Positions 2,187-11,749 are shown, numbered from the stretch's first letter. The stretch is DNA of 30,340 nt from Pyrobaculum sp. (GCA_046293555.1 JBKBOT010000001.1:13746-44085); one strand, 5' to 3'. The notes: generated by a model from the sequence alone, not told the origin. Made by a program: numbers and translations.

Positions 2187-3006
2187 GTGAAATGTGTCAA
2201 GACTGTAGGGTACGTCCCAGAGATTGGGCTGGGGACTTTTGGAACCGGTGGGGACTTCTGGTCTAGAGACAGCAGTAAACACCTGGGTTCAAGCATTGAG
2301 GAGAGGGCTTGAGCTAGGGCTGCGAATTATAGACACCTCTGAGCTATACGGCGCAGGACATACGGACGAACTTGTGAAAATTGCCGCAGCCGAGATATAC
2401 AACGTCTATGTTGTCTACAAGATACAACCCCCGGCGGCGGCTCCAGAGGAGGTAACAAAGAGGGCTGTCATCGCCGCCGAGCGGCTTGGCAGAAGGCCTT
2501 GGATATTGATGTTTCACTGGACGCCTGTACACGTCCACATATGTGATGTAGTCAAGGCGCTGGAGACAGCTGTGGCGAAAGGGCTGGCGGAGCACTACGG
2601 TTTGAGCAACGTGACGTATAAACAGCTAACTGCCGCAATGACGTGCTTCAAGAAGATTGCCCCCGCCGCCGTGGAGAATAGATATAGCTTGAGATATAGG
2701 AGAGACGAGCTAGACGTCCTCCCCCTAACCCAAAGAGAGGGCATGTTATACCTCGCCTACTCTCCACTTGAGAGAGGGCTATTGGCGCTAGATCCCTACC
2801 TGGCCTCCATAGGGGCTAGGTACAACAAGACTGCGGCACAGGTGGCCTTAAACTGGTATCTAGCTATCCCCAACCTAGTCCCCATAGTGAAGTCCGGCAG
2901 CGTGAAGCATGTTGAGGAAAATGCAGGCGCGTTAGGGTGGGCGCTCGGCGAGAAAGACTGGAAGGAGATAGACAAGAGGTTTTACTCATACAGGCTAGAG
3001 ATTTAA
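2187..3006 (+). pseudogene. Aldo/keto reductase split by a +1 frameshift near 2280 (pseudogene or sequence error)
   Basis: GTG 2187 reads MKCVKTVGYVPEIGLGTFGTGGDFWSRDSSK (AKR GxGT motif) and stops at TGA 2310-2312. The rest (DTSELYGAG, GLSN, AYSPL, AQVALNW, HVEEN) is in the +1 frame of ORF 2224-3006. Confidence 0.8.
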
Positions 3007-3026
3007 ATATCCATTTCTTTATCCCA

Positions 3027-3254
3027 ATGGTTATTTACGTCAGGGCAGACCGGTGGCTTTGTACAGGCTGTGGGCTTTGTCAAGGCGCCGTCTTTACCCT
3101 CGAAGATGGGGCGGTGGCCGTAAGGCCTGAGTATAGGTTTAACGGCTCAATAGAGGAGGGCATGGTGGGAGACGACCTGCTGCCAAATGTGCTAAAGGCG
3201 GCGCGGGCTTGTCCCAACGGCGGCATCCGTTGGCTACGTCGTGATCTCCTCTAG
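3027..3254 (+). CDS. Small mono-cluster ferredoxin
   Basis: From ATG 3027, 75 aa with CTGCGLC...ACP. TTTAAATA lies about 25 nt upstream. Confidence 0.85.
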
Positions 3255-4274
3255 CCGCCTTGCCTCCACAGCTTCTCTGATTTCTATCGCAATCCTCCTC
3301 CCCATGGATATAGGCTTGCCGAAATAGAGCTTTGAGTACTGGCCCCCTACCCCCATATACGCGTTGGTCCCACCCCCAATCCTTGGCGCCACGTCGTACA
3401 CCACTACCTCTAGACGTGGGGTGACCACAAACTGTAGGGTAAAGGGCCCTATGGCGCCCGGGGGCACAAGCCTCCGGGCCGCCTCCACAAAGCGGTGGCC
3501 TACATCAAACACCCTCTCTAGGAGAGACTCGCGGAGGGTTGCAGGCTCGTGGCCCACCTCCACGTATCTAACCTCTGGGTCTATGTCTAACTGGTCTCTT
3601 GCCGGGAGTCTATATACTCCATCGAGATTACTCTGTATCCTCCTGTCGAAGCTATGTAACTCTAGCCTCCTCCTCATTGCTGAGTAGAAAAAGTTGGCGT
3701 TAAAATGGGCGCCTAGCACAAGCTCCTCTATTGCAGCCTCCTTTAGGTCTTCCAGCTTTATAACTCCCGCCTCCGCAAGCCGCCTGGCCTTCCTCCACAG
3801 GTCTTCTCTATCTCTCGCAATAAAGAACCCCCTCTCCACCCGCCTCTCCGCCTCCGGCAGTTTTACAATTACAGGCCTGTCTACCTCATCTATGTGGAAA
3901 ACCTTAGGCCGGGGGATGCCGCCCCCGTCTAGGAGCTTGTAGTAATTATGGGGCCCAGTCCTCTCCTCCCACCTTAGGAGAAATCTGTTGCCAAATATGG
4001 GCACTGGAAACTCTCTCTCGATGGCGTCATATCCCACATATACCGCAAAAGAGCGGTTTGGCACAAAGATGGCCTCCTCGCCTTTTAGCAGATCTACAAC
4101 CTTCAGGATGTCTCTATATTCTTCCAACACCACAAGTCTGTCCACTACTGGAAATTCCCTATATGCCCTCTCCCGCCCTCTTTTAGCTATGGCAATAGTT
4201 TTAAACCCCTCGTCTTTCGCCCCATCTAAGACGTCTAACGCGCTGTGGGAAGCCAACACGGCTACAGACACCAC
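3234..4274 (-). CDS. PurP-like ATP-grasp ligase, paralogue 2
   Basis: [34 protein letters not shown] and [11 protein letters not shown] motifs; second PurP subfamily. Confidence 0.85.
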
Positions 4275-4356
4275 GCAAGCTTCTTGTTGGGGTATATAGA
4301 CTTTTTTGTAAACAGAGTGGCAATAGCTTTTTAAAAGAAGGTATATCTTTCACTTT

Positions 4357-5535
4357 ATGGATCTCCTTTCTCCACTTTTTGCAGTAGTGTTAACATATAG
4401 AGAGGTGCGGGGAGACCGTTTGGGGAAGGTGGCTGAAGAGATGAAAAGATGTATAGAGGTGGTGGGGGGGAAGACGCCCATGTTTGTATTACATACATGT
4501 GGGAGAGTTGAGGCGTATCTATACGGCCCCTCTAGGGAGGAGGTGGAGCGTGTCGCCAAGGGGTATAGACGACATGTGGACAACGTGTCTATCCTCAAGG
4601 GTCTGGAGGCCGCCCGCCACCTGTTTCAAGTGGCTGCGGGACTTGACTCCATATTGATAGGGGAGACAGACGTATTAGGCCAGCTGGAGGAGGCATACGA
4701 CAGACAAGTTAGGGCGGGCTACACCAGAGGTCTCTTAAAGCTTGTAGTGGAGAGAGCCATCCGCGTGGGCAAAAGGGTGCGGACAGAAACCAAGATCTCC
4801 CAGGGGCCTAGAGGCCTGGGCTCTCTCTCTATAATCTACGTCTCCAGGCTTCTAGACCTACAGAAAGCCAAGGTCGCCGTGTTTGGCACCGGGGCCCTGG
4901 GGGCAGGTCTAGCCATGGAGCTCGCCGCGAGGGGGGTCGGCAAGCTGTATGTACTAAATAGGACTTTCGAGAAAGCCCTAGAGGTGGCAAGTAAGGTGGG
5001 CGCCGAGGCCAGGCCCCTCACTAGAGAGGAGGTAGAGAGATGTCTGCTAGAATGCGACGTGGTGTTTTCCTCAGTACAGGTCTTTGAATACATAATCGAC
5101 AGCGTGCCCCCCGGCGCTGCGACAAAAGTAGTCGTAGATCTGGGGGTCCCCAACAGCGTTGCGCCAAGCCTCCCCATAAAGGTGGTGCGGATAGAAGACC
5201 TGGGGGAATTAGCCAGCCAATTTAACGAGATGAGGCGGGAGGAGGTGGCAAAAGCCGAGGCTATAGTAGAAGAGGAGGTGGAGAAACTTCCCACATATAT
5301 GGCGAGGAGATATGTGGAGGAGCTAGCGGCATCTCTCATAGAAAAGGCCATGTCTGTCGCCGAGGAGGAGGGCAACAGGGCGGGCTGCCCCACCGCAGTT
5401 CTAGCCGCCAGGACCACCATAAAGAGGACTCTTCTGCCCATAGTAGAAAAGGCGAAAGAGTTGGCTCAAGACGGGAGGCTTGAAGAGGCCGTAAAGCTGG
5501 TTACCTTCCTCAAGGAGCTTTACACCCCGACTTGA
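4357..5535 (+). CDS. hemA: Glutamyl-tRNA reductase
   Basis: TCGRVE catalytic Cys motif, [33 protein letters not shown] site, NRT and DLGVP. Confidence 0.93.
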
Positions 5536-5543
5536 GGCAATAG

Positions 5544-5635
5544 TGGGGCCGCCGGGATTTGAACCCGGGGTCACGCGGACCCGAACCGCGCCTTAGTGGA
5601 CCAAGTCCAATCCTACCAGGCTAGACCACGGCCCC
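5544..5635 (-). tRNA. tRNA-Pro(CGG) with an 18-nt non-canonical intron at about 25/26
   Basis: Minus strand: GGGGCCG-TG-GTCTAGCCTGGTAGGAT[TGGACTTGGTCCACTAAG]G-CGCGG-TTCGGGT-CCGCG-TGACC-CCGGG-TTCAAAT-CCCGG-CGGCCCC-A. Intron about 5592-5609; CCA not encoded; TTTAAA about 25 nt upstream. Confidence 0.92.
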
Positions 5636-5679
5636 CATTGTTCTAAAACTCTCTGTTTTAAATGTTTTGAAAAATGGGG

Positions 5680-5733
5680 TTATTTTTCCTTCTCCTTTTT
5701 CTTCTCCTCCACCTTTTTAGGCGGCGCGCACAT
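5680..5733 (-). CDS. Candidate 17-aa Lys/Glu-rich micropeptide MCAPPKKVEEKKKEKEK
   Basis: ATG 5733 to TAA 5680, with TTTAAATA 20-27 nt upstream and GGGGG just before the ATG. Confidence 0.35.
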   Translation of the reverse strand: MCAPPKKVEEKKKEKEK

Positions 5734-5780
5734 GGCCCCCTTTGGTCTCTACTATTTAAACTTTATTAATTGTTACCCAC

Positions 5781-7100
5781 ATGAAGGTAAGGGTTAGGGG
5801 GGTTTACGCCACGGCGTTAACCAAGCTGTCACTTGAGTGGGGGTTTAAAGTCGTGCAGCCAACAGAAAAGATCAGAGAGAGATTTAAGCTAGAAGAGGAC
5901 CTCTCCCCGCCCGATATTACCATCAAGGACCACGAGTCGAGAAGTGGGGTGGCTATAATTGGGAAGTGTGACCCACTGAGGAGTTTTGTAGAAAAACTCG
6001 TGGAGTATCTCGACCCCTTTGTGGCCTACTCAGACATGGGGCTTCACGACGTCTTTACGGGGAAGGCCCTAGAGGGAGGTTTCGTCGAGGCGCCAGGCGG
6101 TCTTGTGCTTAAAGTTCCGCCTCCCTATTTGCCCACACCTGGCTCCATCCAGGTTTTCACGGTGGTAAGACCCCCCATAGGGCAAGAGGGGGGTCTCGCC
6201 GTGCCGGAAATTGTGGTGGAGGGGGACTACATGGAGCTAAACACCATGGGAGGGGTGAGATACAGTAGGCACATCCCGCAGGTAGATAGGTTCAGACTTG
6301 GCCTCGTCGCCACTAGGTTAAGGCTCGGCGGGCTTGGCCTTAAGTTCAAATCGTCGGCTAGATATGCGGCTGAAGACGTGTTGATTCAAGAGGCTGAAAG
6401 GTTGTATCAAGAGATACAGAGTCTCGCCAACGCCACGGGGATTTTGAGAAGAGGCCGCTGCGTCGCCGTGGTTTTGTTCGACAAAGTGGCTAAGGAGAGG
6501 CTAGACGCGGCGAGGTCGACAGTTGTGCCAACTGTCAGAGGCCACCACGCGTTGAGGGCGCAGGGGATGGGCAGATGTCTCGACCTGCTAGACCACGTGG
6601 GGGCAGATGTCTACGAAAGGGCAGCTGCATTCTTGGCGCGGGGATATATAGAGCTGTGGCACATAAAGCCCTGGGGGAAGGTGGTTAAGATGCGGGGAGA
6701 GGCTCTGGGCTTTAAAGACGGCGTGTTGGTTGTGAAGAGAGCCCTCAAGCCAGGTGGGGTTTTAGACGGCATTGGCGTCAAGATCGGCAGGGGCTATTAC
6801 GCACTGACTTGTGTATCTAGAGATGTGGTTCATACCTACTACACCCCCGAGGGCCAGATGGTGGGGACCTACATAAATATAAACACAGAGCCGGAGCTAG
6901 GGCGTAGGGTTATATACATAGACCTGCTGGTAGACAAGGCCTATGGCCCAGACGGGGTGGAGAAGGTGTTAGATCTGGAGGAATACCACAAATTCCGACA
7001 CATGTTTCCCCAACGGTATAAAGACCTCCCCATGCCAAGAGGAAAAATGGTCTGTACAGAAGGGGGGCTTAAAGCTCTTTCTCAGTCTGACGCCGCTTGA
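5781..7100 (+). CDS. fau-1: FAU-1 family AU-rich RNA-binding protein / ribonuclease (RNase E/G-like N-terminal part plus DUF402)
   Basis: N-terminal VRVRGVYATALT, PTVRGHH, C-terminal GTYININT..E and YIDLLVD. Confidence 0.88.
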   Translation: MKVRVRGVYATALTKLSLEWGFKVVQPTEKIRERFKLEEDLSPPDITIKDHESRSGVAIIGKCDPLRSFVEKLVEYLDPFVAYSDMGLHDVFTGKALEGGFVEAPGGLVLKVPPPYLPTPGSIQVFTVVRPPIGQEGGLAVPEIVVEGDYMELNTMGGVRYSRHIPQVDRFRLGLVATRLRLGGLGLKFKSSARYAAEDVLIQEAERLYQEIQSLANATGILRRGRCVAVVLFDKVAKERLDAARSTVVPTVRGHHALRAQGMGRCLDLLDHVGADVYERAAAFLARGYIELWHIKPWGKVVKMRGEALGFKDGVLVVKRALKPGGVLDGIGVKIGRGYYALTCVSRDVVHTYYTPEGQMVGTYININTEPELGRRVIYIDLLVDKAYGPDGVEKVLDLEEYHKFRHMFPQRYKDLPMPRGKMVCTEGGLKALSQSDAA

Positions 7101-7341
7101 CAGCTTGGTCGAAAACAATCCAGTTTCTATACCACAGCTCGTTAACCTTCTTTAATTCTGTCAAGATGAGTTTAGTTAACTCCTTGGCAGTTATAGACTC
7201 TCTATCGTCTACATAACATTCTATCTTCTTGGCGATTTTTCGCGCCACCTCGGCGGGTGCCCCCGCCTTGAGTATACTTACCACAATTTTCTCGGGGATA
7301 AACTCCTCCTCACGGCCGTCTCTCTTAATTACCTTCACCAT
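7069..7341 (-). CDS. Stand-alone ATP-cone domain protein
   Basis: VIKRDGREEEFIPEKIVVSILKAG ATP-cone signature; 90 aa. Confidence 0.85.
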   Translation of the reverse strand: MVKVIKRDGREEEFIPEKIVVSILKAGAPAEVARKIAKKIECYVDDRESITAKELTKLILTELKKVNELWYRNWIVFDQAVKRRQTEKEL

Positions 7342-7353
7342 ATAATCTTCAAT

Positions 7354-8262
7354 TTATTTAAAGATAAATGCCCCCTCTGTCATCTGTGCCACCTTGACCT
7401 CAGCCCTCAAGCCCTCTTCTAAATAAGCCCTGGCCATTGCCGCCTTTACAGCATCGCTGTGTTTCTCATCTACTAACGCCACGACGGCGGGCCCAGCCCC
7501 AGAGAGGGCAACTCCAAAGGCCCCGGCCTCTTTGGCGTATTTTTTCACCCTATAGTAGCCCTGTACATACGGCGCCCGGGCCGGCTCCACCACCTCATCC
7601 TCCATGCCAAGGGCGGCAGTTCTGGGGTCTGAGTAGGCAAATCCGGAGACCAACGCGGCCACTTTAGCCAGCTGGCTTACATATCTCCTAAACTCCACCT
7701 CTTTTGGCAATACACTCCGCATGATTTTTGTCTTTTCTGGAACTGGCGGCACGTCTGGCACTCCAATCACGAAGAAAAACCGGGGGGAAAACCTAACCAC
7801 CTCCAGGGGGGATGTGGAGATCAGCACCACTGCGCCGCCTAGAGCGGCTCCAGCCACGTTGTCAAAATGTGGCGACCCCGCGGCGGCGGTTTCGCCAAGT
7901 CCCGCAGCCTCTATGGCGATTCTGTAATCTATCGACATTCCAGCCTCATATAGAAAAGCGGCTATGGCGGCAACTGCCGACGCCCCGCTGCTACCCAGCC
8001 CCCTGGCGATGGGGATCCTGTTGTTCACCTCTACCTCCACCTGTCTACATATGCCCAACCTGTCGAAAAGAGCCCTGAGGGCTGCAGCCACAGTGTTGTG
8101 CGGCCCGGGGTTGTACTCCCGAAATCTGACATCTACGCCACATCCAGACTCAATTTTCACATAGGCCTCGGCAAAATACGCGTCGTGCGCCACAGCCACT
8201 ATGTCAAAACCTGCGCCTAGGTTGGCGCTAGTGGACGGAGCCTTTCCGTAGTTACAAGACAT
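7354..8262 (-). CDS. thrB: Homoserine kinase (GHMP family)
   Basis: [31 protein letters not shown] and LSGAGP. True start is most likely ATG 8262, because the longer ORF-track extension runs through the structured RNA. Confidence 0.93.
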
Positions 8263-8291
8263 TAATGGGTGAGAATTGAGGTAAATAAAAG

Positions 8292-8434
8292 ACCCACGGC
8301 CCCCAGCCGTCGGCGCCGACGTGGCCAACAACACCAGACGGGTTGGCCCGTCCAGTGCCGTTGGCCATCCCCCCTGGCCACACGTGGGTTTAGCCCACAT
8401 GTGGCGAGCCCGGGGGCGGCTGGGAGCCGTGGGC
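8292..8434 (-). ncRNA. Unclassified, highly structured GC-rich RNA (multi-branch, 4 helices)
   Basis: 17-18 bp closing stem, 12-bp and 21-bp hairpins, and a GTCGGCGCCGAC palindrome. All non-Watson-Crick pairs in these helices are G-U on the minus strand. AT-rich promoter-like DNA lies upstream and TTTTATTT downstream. Confidence 0.7.
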
Positions 8435-8586
8435 TGTCTATATAACAATAGACACATATAACATTATTTACATAATACATATATAATATATCTCTTAGAA
8501 ATTTGGTATTACCCTATATATTATTAAAGGGTAGTTTAACTACTTGTCATAACGAAATTTTTTAAAGATGGGGTAAAGTCAGCGTT

Positions 8587-9612
8587 ATGGAGAATCTACT
8601 GTTTATTATTACAAACATCCTCGGCGGTTTTTATCTCGCCGTTATTATTGGGGGAATAACCAAACGGGTGAGGAGGCCGGATTTGCCCGAAGCTGAGAAC
8701 TACCTAGTTGTAGTGGTTACTGTAGGCACCCCAAAGGTGCTGCCGGCACTTAGAGAGACGGTGACGCGGCTTGAGCAGCTTGGCCTACGTTATGTAGTGG
8801 TGTCTTCAAACGTCCTACCTTTTAGAAACGTCATCTTGGTGCCCAGAGAGGAAGATGGGAGTAAATACAGGGCAGTCTTATATTTTGTGAAGAGATACGT
8901 ACGGGAGGATACATGGTATATATTTCTCGACGATGATAGCTACCCGTTAGATAGGACATTTCTAAAAGATATCGCCTACTATAGCTCTCTGGGCTGTGTG
9001 GCGGGAAACGGCGTATTGGTACCACGACCTGGGAGGTCTAAGCTAGCCTACGCCCTAGATTGGGTCCGCTATTTTGACGACTTAACCCGTTTCCGTTTTG
9101 CCCTAGAGGTCTTAAGAAAGCCCATATTTGGGATACATGGCGAGTTGTTAATCGTCAGGGGGGACGTGTTGAAAGAGGTGTGGCCAGCCATGGGGGAGAG
9201 CGTCACTGAGGACTTCCGCCTCGCCATGGAGCTCCTAAAGAGAAAATACAAGACCTTCCAGTCCGCCACCAGGGTGTCTATAAAAAGCCCAAACTCGTTA
9301 GGCGATTTCATACGTCAGAGAGCCAGATGGGCTAACTCCCTAAGGGATATGGTCACATATAAAAACGCTTCAGCTCTTATGGCCACTACTGCCTCAATAG
9401 CCATGTGGGTTACGGCACCTCTCTGGCTGATATACGGAGTGAATCTAGCCATGTTGGTAACAATCTACTTCTTAGCAATATATACCTACAGCAGCATTAA
9501 GGCTGGGAGGTATGTAATAGACGTATTACTAATGTCGCTACTAGAGCCAATAGCCATGTCTATAGGACTGGCGAGACGCATGAGGCAGTTCTACGTAATT
9601 GACAAGACTTAA
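8587..9612 (+). CDS. Membrane-bound GT2 glycosyltransferase (D,D,D,QxxRW type; egghead-like)
   Basis: FLDDDS, TED and QRARW motifs; N-terminal and several C-terminal hydrophobic segments. Confidence 0.85.
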   Translation: MENLLFIITNILGGFYLAVIIGGITKRVRRPDLPEAENYLVVVVTVGTPKVLPALRETVTRLEQLGLRYVVVSSNVLPFRNVILVPREEDGSKYRAVLYFVKRYVREDTWYIFLDDDSYPLDRTFLKDIAYYSSLGCVAGNGVLVPRPGRSKLAYALDWVRYFDDLTRFRFALEVLRKPIFGIHGELLIVRGDVLKEVWPAMGESVTEDFRLAMELLKRKYKTFQSATRVSIKSPNSLGDFIRQRARWANSLRDMVTYKNASALMATTASIAMWVTAPLWLIYGVNLAMLVTIYFLAIYTYSSIKAGRYVIDVLLMSLLEPIAMSIGLARRMRQFYVIDKT

Positions 9613-9637
9613 ATATAGACATGTTTAAAATTGGCGA

Positions 9638-9745
9638 GCCGCCGTAGTCTAGCGGTTAGGATGGCGGGTTGTGGACCGCCAGGGGCAAAGTCCCGTTGAC
9701 CCGGGAGGGATAACCCCGGGAGTTCAAATCCCGGCGGCGGCCCCA
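9638..9745 (+). tRNA. tRNA-His(GTG) with two introns (37/38 and 53/54), CCA encoded
   Basis: GCCGCCG...GCGGG-TT-GTG-G[9675-9690]T-CCCGT-TGAC-CCGGG[9706-9722]TTCAAAT-CCCGG-CGGCGGC-C-CCA. Both introns form BHB motifs; C73 discriminator. Confidence 0.95.
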
Positions 9746-9778
9746 CCCAAACTTAAAAACATGTATCTAACCGCTCCC

Positions 9779-9985
9779 ATGCTTAAAGTAGAGAGCCGCG
9801 GCCCGTTGTTAAGACTTGTATACACCAAGGGCGAAAAAGAGGCCGTGGCCGTGGGCCCCGTGTCGGACTTCCCCACGTTGTTAGGCCTATTTGTGGCGCA
9901 GATGGCTAGAGAGGAGTTTGAAATCGACGATATATGCACAGCGTTGAGACAAGTGGCGGAAAAAAAGTTATTTCCTCCTAAGTAG
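9779..9985 (+). CDS. Small hypothetical protein (68 aa)
   Basis: ATG 9779 (MLKVESRGPLLRLVY...) with TTAAAA about 25 nt upstream. The upstream ORF-track extension overlaps the tRNA and is spurious. Confidence 0.6.
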   Translation: MLKVESRGPLLRLVYTKGEKEAVAVGPVSDFPTLLGLFVAQMAREEFEIDDICTALRQVAEKKLFPPK

Positions 9986-11749
9986 CGCCACTATTACGCC
10001 AACTATAAGCAACGCCAGTATGGCCACAGCCTCTATTGGAAACGTCTGTGGCTGCGGGACGGCTATGGGCGACGTGGCGGCTTCAGTTGGAACTGGAGTT
10101 GTCTCGACGGGTCTTGTTTCCACCTGTGGAGAGGTGGTAGTGGGTGTTTGTGGCGGAGGTGTGGTGACAGTAGGCGTGGCTATTTGCCCTATTTGCACCA
10201 CTTGAGGCCTGCCGCCGGGGGGAGTTATCTCAAGCGCCGTGGGCCCCCTGTATTGGAACCGGTAGATATAGACGGGCTGTTCCTCTAGATAAGACGCCAG
10301 CACCCTACTTCCGTTTATTGTCAAAAACGGTATCCCCACCTGGCTGTCGTCAGCCCTAATGTTGACAGTCACCACGTCGCCTGGCGTCGGGCTTCTAGGT
10401 AGGATACGTTCAATTTTTACAACTGGCGAGGGGTCGTAGCTGCCTAACACAAGCCATATGGGGGTTCCCGAAGTCCTGAAGACATATCTGTCGTATTTAC
10501 CCAAGGGGTGCCGTAATGTATTAACTAACTCCGCCGATCCCTGTAGGGCCTTAACCCCGTCGAGGTTGGGGGGTAGGTCTATCGAGATCTCTCCCTTTAT
10601 GAACTCGCTGTTTGTATATATCTGCGCCGCCTTGAAGCCCCACGTGATTACTGCAAAACTCTTATGTGTCCACACCTCCCTACCCACTTCCACCCTGCCG
10701 TCTGGATAGACGGCATAGGTCCTAAAGCCGTGGGAGGTGTCTATAGAGCCGCCGAGCGTCCTGCTGGTGACGAAATACGTGCCGTTTATCAACACCGTGG
10801 AGTTTCCACTGTGTACATGTCCAGACACCACAAGTGCCACTCCATACCTGATGGTCACGTCGAGAAATCTCTCGTATGTACGCCTATTTTGTAGATAGCT
10901 CGTGTAGACAAGGTAGTAACTCCTCCTGCCTGTCGGGTCTTGATTTAACCTATCTACATCCTGGGGGCCTCTATATATCTCCTCCATAAAGCCGTCCCTC
11001 ATGTAGAACGGCGGGTGGTGTACCAGCACTATCTTCACCTTGTCTGGATATCTCCGCAGCACGTTTTCGTAAAACTCCACCACGTCGTCAGTGAGAAATC
11101 CGTTAAAGCCGCTGCTTAGCCCCACCAGTAGGTAGGGCCCCACCACTCTATACCAGAGGGGAGGCCCCACAAACCTCCTGTAGTTTGCCAAAGCCTCGTC
11201 GCCGGCGTACTCGTGGTTGCCAGGGATGACAAATGTGGGCTTTGTGATCAACGTGGCGTATTTTACAAACAGCTGGTAGTGCCAGATCTGGCCGCCTACG
11301 TCCACCTGGTCTCCAGTAAATAGGACCACGTCGTAGGGGCCCGAGCTGGCGACTAGCACCGCATGTATCAGCCTATATACAGAGGCCATGTCTAGCTCTA
11401 CGCCCATGTGGGCATCTGTGAGCTGAATTATTTTGAGGGGCCTACTTATGTTGCCAACCCAGACGGCCTTGGGCTCGTAGAGCTCTCCATTTACCACAAG
11501 GTCGTAAAGCCCCGGCTTTACGCCAGTTGGCACCTTTGCACGTATGGTGGCGCCATCTGTCACATATTCTAGAGATATGGGGGCGACGCCCGGCGCGGTT
11601 AACGACACAGACTTTACCGCAGTTGGCTCGCTAAGCGTTATGTTAAACCAGCCGCCTGGCTCGACATATGTGGGAACTGCCCAACGTGGGTCAACAATAG
11701 AGGGAAAAACAAGTGCGGCTAATAGAAAAAAGAGGAGTAAACCCCTCAT
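9968..11749 (-). CDS. Secreted, C-terminally anchored calcineurin-like metallophosphoesterase
   Basis: Signal peptide; DAH, GDQVD, GNHE, HH and GHVH motifs; Thr/Pro-rich linker; C-terminal TM helix followed by RRK. Confidence 0.88.
   Translation of the reverse strand: MRGLLLFFLLAALVFPSIVDPRWAVPTYVEPGGWFNITLSEPTAVKSVSLTAPGVAPISLEYVTDGATIRAKVPTGVKPGLYDLVVNGELYEPKAVWVGNISRPLKIIQLTDAHMGVELDMASVYRLIHAVLVASSGPYDVVLFTGDQVDVGGQIWHYQLFVKYATLITKPTFVIPGNHEYAGDEALANYRRFVGPPLWYRVVGPYLLVGLSSGFNGFLTDDVVEFYENVLRRYPDKVKIVLVHHPPFYMRDGFMEEIYRGPQDVDRLNQDPTGRRSYYLVYTSYLQNRRTYERFLDVTIRYGVALVVSGHVHSGNSTVLINGTYFVTSRTLGGSIDTSHGFRTYAVYPDGRVEVGREVWTHKSFAVITWGFKAAQIYTNSEFIKGEISIDLPPNLDGVKALQGSAELVNTLRHPLGKYDRYVFRTSGTPIWLVLGSYDPSPVVKIERILPRSPTPGDVVTVNIRADDSQVGIPFLTINGSRVLASYLEEQPVYIYRFQYRGPTALEITPPGGRPQVVQIGQIATPTVTTPPPQTPTTTSPQVETRPVETTPVPTEAATSPIAVPQPQTFPIEAVAILALLIVGVIVALLRRK

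Follow-up and report, generated by a model that had tools for sequence, protein, structure and literature searches.

A probable structured non-coding RNA gene, predicted to fold as a four-way junction, in Pyrobaculum and Thermoproteus

The stretch of DNA analysed here (the window, 30,340 nt of Pyrobaculum sp., GCA_046293555.1, JBKBOT010000001.1:13746-44085) very probably carries on its minus strand a genuine, conserved and independently transcribed gene for a structured non-coding RNA, of a family that is not in Rfam. Judged by sequence comparison, this family is new, with no match to a described RNA family. Leaving aside rRNA, tRNA, RNase P, SRP and guide RNAs, the structured RNA families of archaea with good support are, to our knowledge, very few. 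The comparative support for the one presented here is unusually strong, with 67 distinct sequences and 26 covarying pairs, and the RNA is a good candidate for a new Rfam family. Its clear gene anatomy and its sharply bounded range in cultivable hyperthermophiles make it directly testable.

The RNA and its predicted fold

The minus strand from 8434 to 8292 was folded with ViennaRNA as a 143-nt four-way junction with arms P1 to P4. RNA positions (i) are converted to window coordinates as 8435 - i. The features of the locus are the following:

8292..8434, minus strand: RNA core of 143 nt, the size of a mature RNA, four-way junction of P1 to P4 (fold and full-length covariance-model match)
8418..8434, minus strand: 5' strand of P1, RNA nt 1-17 (fold and covariation)
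8292..8308, minus strand: 3' strand of P1, RNA nt 127-143 (fold and covariation)
8369..8416, minus strand: P2, nt 19-66: conserved CCCCC/GGGGG pairs at its base, then an internal loop, then a 12-bp apical hairpin that varies freely (fold and alignment)
8322..8367, minus strand: P3, nt 68-113, 21 bp and a 4-nt loop, the distal half near-invariant and rich in wobble pairs (fold and alignment)
8309..8320, minus strand: P4, nt 115-126, 4 bp and the loop GCGC, a short hairpin that is the invariant palindrome (G)UCGGCGCCGA(C) (fold and alignment)
8455..8463, minus strand: BRE/TATA-like box TGTTATATG, -29 to -21 relative to the start of P1, degenerate with respect to the family consensus, cACTGTTATAAA
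8472..8489, minus strand: AT-rich two-part element ATATTATATATGTATTAT, a putative regulator site, degenerate with respect to the family consensus of two TAWTAY half-sites
8282..8291, minus strand: pyrimidine/T tract CTTTTATTTA, directly after P1 (sequence)
7354..8262, minus strand: thrB-like GHMP kinase gene, 302 aa, a neighbour outside the RNA (Pfam GHMP_kinases_N and GHMP_kinases_C)

For a 156-nt stretch of the minus strand, the minimum free energy (MFE) was -118 kcal/mol (z -9.96), the MFE and centroid structures agreed, and none of 200 dinucleotide shuffles (mean -73.3) folded as well. The plus strand gave a weaker fold (-102.7, z -7.8). The 143-nt core contains 61 pairs, of which 42 are G-C or C-G, 12 are A-U or U-A and 7 are G-U or U-G. 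At 95 C, P1 to P3 of this core are predicted to be folded and P4 to be melted. The predicted fold offers a natural case of an RNA made to keep its structure near 100 C.

The first-pass annotation, made from the sequence alone, had proposed a four-helix RNA on the minus strand, and its sequence and fold are as described there. The pair count also returned exactly the seven non-Watson-Crick pairs that it had listed, all of them G-U on this strand. Its P1 of 18 bp, however, included C126, which it had also counted in P4, and P1 has 17 bp. The locus is, as was claimed, a sharp GC island (GC 0.70 at 8300-8399 versus 0.22 upstream, at 8450-8549), and the TTTTATTT tract that was said to lie beside the island was located at 8290-8283.

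Conservation, covariation and strand

Homologues with 68-81% identity were found by BLAST in relatives and, when folded singly, they presented the same architecture with differing sequences in P1 and in the P2 tip. To evaluate the pairing, two alignments were considered. In the first one, 20 homologues were aligned with MAFFT without any structural information; the RNAalifold consensus has 46 pairs, and compensatory double changes were present in 23 of them. From this alignment a covariance model was built, and its matches formed a joint alignment of 76 sequences (30 genome copies and 46 metagenome contigs), 67 of them distinct. In this second alignment, which was fitted to the model and therefore favours the model structure, and whose metagenome part was picked by a pattern fixing parts of P3 and P4, standard pairs make up 97.4% of the cells and both sides have changed in 26 of the 46 pairs (67 distinct sequences). 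The outcome was alike on the 30 genome copies alone, which were fitted to the model in the same way. It should be noted that neither of these biases, from model fitting or from selection by pattern, affects the result of the structure-free alignment.

None of 500 column shuffles of the 67-sequence alignment reached any of five pairing measures, and slid controls, in which the partner was moved by 1-3 columns, were 39-53% paired, with 7-10 double-change pairs. By helix, the double changes fall in 11 of the 17 pairs of P1, in all 6 of the P2 tip, in 7 of 16 in P3 and in one of P4, where U-A has become C-G in two copies.

The signal belongs to one strand. The window's copy matches the model over its full length with 129.4 bits on the minus strand and 46.4 bits on the plus strand. 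In the 24 genomes of the family that carry the RNA, the covariance model gave 87.8-139.7 bits in sense and 36.7-56.3 bits in antisense; for genomes and metagenome contigs taken together, the values were 88-148 bits in sense and at most 66 bits in antisense at the same places. The bias towards G-U pairs, previously read as a sign of selection on a single-stranded molecule, holds for the whole family, since 125 G-U cells versus 24 A-C cells were counted within the pairs of 30 homologues. This asymmetry between strands, together with the promoter and terminator motifs described below, argues for a minus-strand RNA rather than a DNA cruciform. As far as the compared sequences can tell, what is conserved is a structure with compensatory changes on one strand, as is expected of an archaeal non-coding RNA gene.

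Promoter and terminator motifs

Archaeal promoters carry a TATA box about 25 nt before the transcription start. In the 60 nt before P1, the family-shared cACTGTTATAAA ends near -21 from the first P1 base, and two TAWTAY half-sites are located farther upstream. Full flanks were available for 66 distinct loci, and in 61 of these a TTWWWAW heptamer begins between -26 and -29. The strict form CTGTTWTAAA was found in 34 of these 66, the window having a degenerate form only. A TAWTAY half-site at -55 to -29 was observed in 51 of 66, a count in which chance matches are likely given that the DNA is AT-rich. On the other side of the RNA, the first 12 nt after P1 are on average 84% pyrimidine (66 loci), and 51 of the 66 loci have a run of three or more T or of eight or more pyrimidines downstream of P1.

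At the level of motifs, the RNA is framed by a BRE/TATA promoter of its own at about -27 and, at the 3' end, by a T/pyrimidine-rich terminator, as a non-coding RNA gene should be. From the spacing of the TATA box, the start is predicted to coincide with the first P1 base or to lie no more than a few nt from it, which would give an RNA of about 143-150 nt, and the tract CTTTTATTTA is likely to be its terminator. The two-part element upstream is possibly the site of a regulator; the presence of an own promoter plus this conserved AT-rich element suggests regulated expression. The combined pattern of half-site and TATA box is nearly confined to this gene in five complete relatives, with 0-3 matches per genome, and in four of them the promoter of the RNA is one of the matches. 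The search for a regulon by means of the promoter element gave unrelated AT-rich matches in the window's own genome and no regulon in the five complete relatives.

A different set of promoter-like sites was observed in the same genome. At least five sites with the near-identical upstream sequence GTAATAT..GTCGAAC..ACTGTTATAAATA, each followed by an ATG about 24 nt later, are present in L070 at about 2900-11400 (G000 contig C26, 12.9-21.3 kb), where the large ORFs (395, 368, 203 and 188 aa) have no Pfam match. One further site of this type is on contig C35 (L071, about 2480). These sites may correspond to a co-regulated or recently expanded gene family.

Expression data

Public runs matching the locus of a cultured relative were also inspected. 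Four small runs labelled as RNA-seq contain the whole 360-nt stretch; in three such runs of the cultured relative the contigs measure 2.5-23 kb, too long to bear on transcription. In a hot-spring metatranscriptome, a contig of 117 nt lies wholly inside the RNA of a close relative (L042 1532-1620) with a word depth of 104, and a contig over a neighbouring gene has a depth of 5.6, with the proviso that contig depths cannot rank genes and that the library may hold DNA. We take the 117-nt contig as a weak hint of expression. Part of the P3 hairpin is repeated in the first 28 letters of this contig, apparently an artefact of assembling a near-palindrome.

Conserved positions and proposed function

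The sequence of P1, the apical hairpin of P2 and both terminal loops vary freely. In contrast, three parts are near-invariant across both genera in which the RNA is found: P2 at its CCCC/GGGG base, P3 in its distal half, and the 10-nt palindrome of P4. The 10-mer of P4 is UCGGCGCCGA in 25 of 30 copies and, with a compensatory change, CCGGCGCCGG in 2. One position of P3 is A.C in 25 of 30 copies, G-U in 4 and A-U in 1, the window's; other positions of this helix are G-U in 23/30 and U-G in 17/30. A G-U pair has the same shape as a protonated A.C pair. The copy of the window is slightly derived: an A-U pair takes the place of A.C, and Watson-Crick pairs replace the AUAA/GAAA junction linkers of most copies.

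Helices conserved with their non-Watson-Crick pairs, next to loops that are not conserved, are the pattern of a structural RNA recognised by protein and not that of an antisense RNA seeded from a loop, and this is our main reason for proposing a scaffold or decoy. According to this model, the RNA would be transcribed from its own BRE/TATA promoter, with a start on the first base of P1 or only a few nt away; its 3' end would fall in the pyrimidine/T tract right after P1, and it would then fold as a four-way junction. The product would be a trans-acting, regulated structural RNA, working as the scaffold of a ribonucleoprotein (RNP) or as a protein decoy. The 17-bp P1 and the variable P2 tip would contribute stability only, and the recognition surface would be formed by the distal P3 with its A.C/G-U wobbles, the CCCCC/GGGGG base of P2 and the UCGGCGCCGA palindrome at the junction (P4).

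We give roughly even chances to the proposal that the RNA acts in trans as a structural, protein-binding molecule. Action in trans is preferred to action in cis since, as shown in the next sections, both the orientation to thrB and the two neighbours vary, and the one or two copies per genome are unlinked. A scaffold is preferred to an antisense RNA on account of the unconserved loops and P2 tip, the near-invariant helices of P3 and P4, and the prediction that P1 to P3 are folded at 95 C. On the other hand, no protein gene is constantly adjacent to the RNA in the 76 loci, which counts against a protein-binding role, and so do the A-U pair and the lost AUAA/GAAA linkers of the window's copy, which depart from the family. 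Moreover, conserved helical sequence would fit equally well a strand-dependent role, either pairing to a target after unfolding or dimerisation.

A more specific version of the model, which we put forward tentatively, is that of an unrecognised class of archaeal RNP RNA: a regulated, hyperstable four-way junction of Pyrobaculum and Thermoproteus, by which a protein would be captured or scaffolded through the wobble-rich P3 and the junction palindrome, possibly as a dimer. If true, this RNP RNA would be the archaeal counterpart of the decoy RNAs 6S, 7SK and Y RNA, in logic and not in ancestry. With SRP RNA, Y RNA and RNAs of the 6S/7SK type it shares a long terminal stem that joins the 5' and 3' ends, an own promoter, conservation placed in non-Watson-Crick helices over loops, and a free peripheral hairpin. 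It differs from them in that there is no sequence or model similarity, and in its range of two genera only.

Among the alternatives, the one that survives best is a regulatory sRNA that would act in trans by base pairing, with a conserved segment such as the region of the P4 palindrome pairing with mRNA targets. The own promoter and the conserved two-part element, which suggest regulated expression, would suit such an RNA, as would a P4 predicted to be open, that is single-stranded, at 95 C. We nevertheless consider it unlikely, given that the terminal loops are unconserved, that almost all the conserved nucleotides are inside very stable helices, and that the palindrome TCGGCGCCGA occurs five times in the genome, the RNA itself included, with no positional pattern and no target found. 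The palindrome was also considered as a genomic binding site and rejected in view of these five copies without pattern.

Somewhat more doubtful is a precursor or self-associating RNA, which would be cut, circularised or diced, or would form a homodimer through the invariant 10-nt palindrome. The palindrome is indeed invariant and its one observed change leaves it palindromic; besides, in 9 of 10 sequences the co-folded dimer was 6-8 kcal/mol below two monomers at 95 C (3.5 in the tenth). Such a co-fold, however, is obtained with any hairpin having a self-complementary loop, and is therefore not specific. As to processing, no bulge-helix-bulge motif is visible in the fold, and the odd join that the metatranscriptome contig shows within the P3 hairpin looks, as we mentioned before, like an artefact.

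Genomic neighbourhood and the relation to thrB

In the window, the RNA is 30 nt from the ATG of the thrB-like gene and on the same strand, and the divergent ORF upstream of the RNA encodes a family-2 glycosyltransferase. Most genomes of the window's genus present the same thrB-glycosyltransferase neighbourhood with the RNA pointing away from thrB and a cyclase-family gene (PF04199) between them. Only in the window and in one relative is the cyclase gene missing and the RNA flipped, so that it lies directly upstream of thrB and co-directional with it. Over the 76 loci, the nearest upstream ORF is most often a cyclase on the opposite strand (25/76). The genes located downstream differ among loci and include a glycosyltransferase, a short-chain dehydrogenase, an FtsX-type or amino-acid permease, a metallo-beta-lactamase and PAC2, among others. 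Near the copies of the second genus, neither thrB nor any other neighbour from the window was found.

The position in the window had led to the suggestion of a thrB leader, and a cis-acting leader or riboswitch of thrB deserves to be considered for two reasons: the RNA directly precedes a co-directional thrB in the window and one relative, and 21 of the 76 loci have a homologue of thrB no more than 2.5 kb away. The RNA also resembles four-way-junction riboswitch aptamers such as SAM-I in its size (about 100-150 nt), in its four-helix junction and, in the window, in its place upstream of an amino-acid pathway gene. This explanation is nonetheless highly improbable. In those 21 loci thrB is always upstream and on the opposite strand, mostly behind the cyclase gene; the RNA is mostly transcribed away from thrB, its neighbours in the second genus are unrelated, and the downstream gene varies, so a constant co-directional position upstream of thrB was not observed. 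The leader proposed by the first-pass annotation can therefore be set aside. In addition, the RNA has no Rfam riboswitch match and no fixed downstream gene, unlike SAM-I, and its 17-bp P1 is followed at once by the terminator-like tract, which leaves no expression platform of the SAM-I kind. No competing alternative fold was visible: the MFE and centroid shapes are the same and P1 holds at 95 C.

The gene thrB appears to have signals of its own, which also speaks against a leader. The T tract at 8283-8290 is at -28 to -21 from the thrB ATG, and thus thrB is plausibly transcribed from a TATA box of its own, as a leaderless mRNA. One tract may have two roles, as terminator of the RNA and as TATA box of thrB.

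It should also be mentioned that the longest thrB ORF, 7354-8457 on the minus strand (367 aa), spans the whole RNA gene. Alignments with relatives take in about 293-298 of the 302 residues of the thrB-like protein, and the start that the relatives support is the ATG at 8262. Gene callers can swallow the RNA gene into this over-long ORF, and automatic annotation may for this reason hide the RNA inside thrB.

Distribution and copy number

With the covariance model, the RNA was detected in 24 of the 29 genomes of the window's taxonomic family, with one or two copies in each; nine genomes have two. In the window's genus it is present in 16 of 18 genomes (15 of 17 others plus the window's own) and in the second genus in 8 of 9. 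No match was obtained with this model in the two genomes of a third genus, nor in the 33 genomes of two sister families of the order (0/31 and 0/2). The five genomes of the family without a match gave no weaker model match better than E 0.02; one of them, of the second genus, is 99% complete, and the others are 61-93% complete, so that absence there is uncertain. The lack of a match in the 99%-complete genome and in two less complete genomes of the window's genus suggests that the RNA may be dispensable.

Metagenome contigs were scanned with a gapped pattern, which returned 56 loci; 46 of them have a full-length match, all from hot springs, and the other 10 are due to chance. Among the genome-contig pattern matches listed, which include chance ones in GC-rich bacteria, the named carriers are Pyrobaculum sp., Thermoproteus sp. 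and uncultured Thermoproteaceae. The RNA family is specific to two genera of Thermoproteaceae, with named carriers labelled as Pyrobaculum and Thermoproteus.

As regards copy number and synteny, which BLASTN had been proposed to settle, the 1.75-Mb assembly of the window's genome has a single full copy, the remaining BLAST matches in it being of 26 nt or less, and the gene order around the RNA varies among relatives.

Two genomes carry inverted copies of the RNA. They are separated by 24 kb in one case (G006:C1 437054-437228 on the minus strand and 461422-461596 on the plus strand) and by 43 kb in the other (G008:C1 729016-729190, minus, and 771809-771983, plus). In these two genomes the apical hairpin of P2 is about 35 nt longer, in both copies of G006 and in at least one of G008. 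Recombination between inverted copies could be the cause of the flip of the RNA with respect to thrB in the window. In a quick tree made from the 143-nt alignment, the second copies L065 (G043) and L066 (G003) fall with the other genus; since the assemblies of both are fragmented, mis-binned contigs are as likely an explanation as gene transfer.

These inverted pairs and displaced copies, fragmented as the assemblies of the latter are, could also be cited in favour of an element acting at the DNA level or a mobile one (a MITE-like hairpin repeat, a cruciform, an integration site or an origin element), together with the long near-perfect helices and the rearranged gene order among relatives. 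Such an element is very unlikely, and the non-autonomous mobile hairpin that had been offered as one reading of the locus does not agree with the data. There is a single copy here and one or two elsewhere, always with the same promoter, where a MITE would be expected in many dispersed copies; no terminal repeats or target duplications were seen. No blastn match to the RNA was found in phage and plasmid collections, and the single pattern match among viral contigs is in a contig that does not contain the RNA. The excess of G-U over A-C cells, the higher sense scores and the conserved promoter and terminator motifs also point to an RNA.

Comparison with known RNAs

The whole window was searched with Rfam 15 at the gathering threshold, and the only match was a tRNA at 9638-9742. 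In a permissive search of 8150-8600 the best match reached 22.2 bits, against a threshold of 90 (E 0.11), and 20 homologous loci gave only a tRNA at E<=0.1. ARAGORN found no tRNA in the RNA. It had been stated that no signature of tRNA, 5S, SRP, RNase P, C/D or H/ACA RNA could be seen, and this agrees with the lack of any match to the RNA, among riboswitch and ribozyme families too, in the window and in the 20 homologous loci.

Two RNA candidates of Pyrobaculum required a separate comparison. According to Weinberg et al. 2010 (PMC2864571) and its supplementary alignments, Pyrobac-1 (RF01722) and Pyrobac-HINT are single hairpins of about 60-68 nt, the latter located upstream of HINT genes and without an Rfam accession in the table of the paper, for which reason Rfam alone would not exclude it. 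RF01722 had no match in the window or in the 20 homologous loci, so that the Rfam search that had been recommended is negative for Pyrobac-1 too. Pyrobac-HINT was set apart by eye against the published alignment and not by a model; the RNA does not have the form of one hairpin of about 65 nt that precedes HINT genes. As these two are described in the same paper, they share with our RNA the condition of orphan structured RNA candidates that are GC-rich and lineage-restricted (to Pyrobaculum in their case), but differ from it in size, shape and sequence. The claim of an undescribed stable non-coding RNA is therefore upheld by the covariation, by the promoter and terminator motifs, by the lack of an Rfam 15 match and by the dissimilarity to Pyrobac-1 and Pyrobac-HINT.

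No description of the RNA was found in the full text open to search, which included PMC3388794, PMC4731332 and PMC2864571. The Pyrobaculum small-RNA libraries described in PMC3388794 are of 16-70 nt, and the RNA would not show whole in them. A further piece of ribosomal RNA was also discarded, as the available passages of the preprint on the P. calidifontis ribosome (10.1101/2024.11.12.623245) concern new proteins only.

The identity with RNase P RNA was rejected, since the type T RNase P RNA (RF02357) of this genome is on another contig, with 195 bits, and the RNA has no RNase P model match. Both RNAs are lineage-specific, compact and GC-rich and occur in the same archaea, but the taxonomic range of type T is wider. 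Ordinary RNase P RNAs likewise have a four-way junction as the core of their S domain, and the genome does have a type T RNA, which lacks this domain; it is, however, scarcely credible that our RNA supplies it in trans, as type T was found in 29 of 31 genomes of a sister family and in both of the third genus, where the RNA is in 0/31 and 0/2, and as the sizes and order of its arms are unlike P7-P12.

A split-off SRP Alu domain was likewise rejected, given that the flanks of the SRP locus carry, by eye, the rest of the SRP RNA. The SRP match in the window's own genome covers only model positions 102-270, with 76.8 bits against a cut-off of 96.5. At this locus, which is on another contig than the RNA (L039 1501-1668, G000 contig C38), only the S domain aligns, and the flanks of the Alu domain are present by eye; an SRP RNA below the Rfam threshold with its Alu flanks in place suggests that the Rfam model is a poor fit for this clade.

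Finally, the tRNA match at 9638-9742, on the plus strand, measures 105 nt and has an Rfam score of 34.9 bits; it was not reported by ARAGORN and probably contains an intron. A similar tRNA is located near the RNA in one relative (L052 1782-1887).
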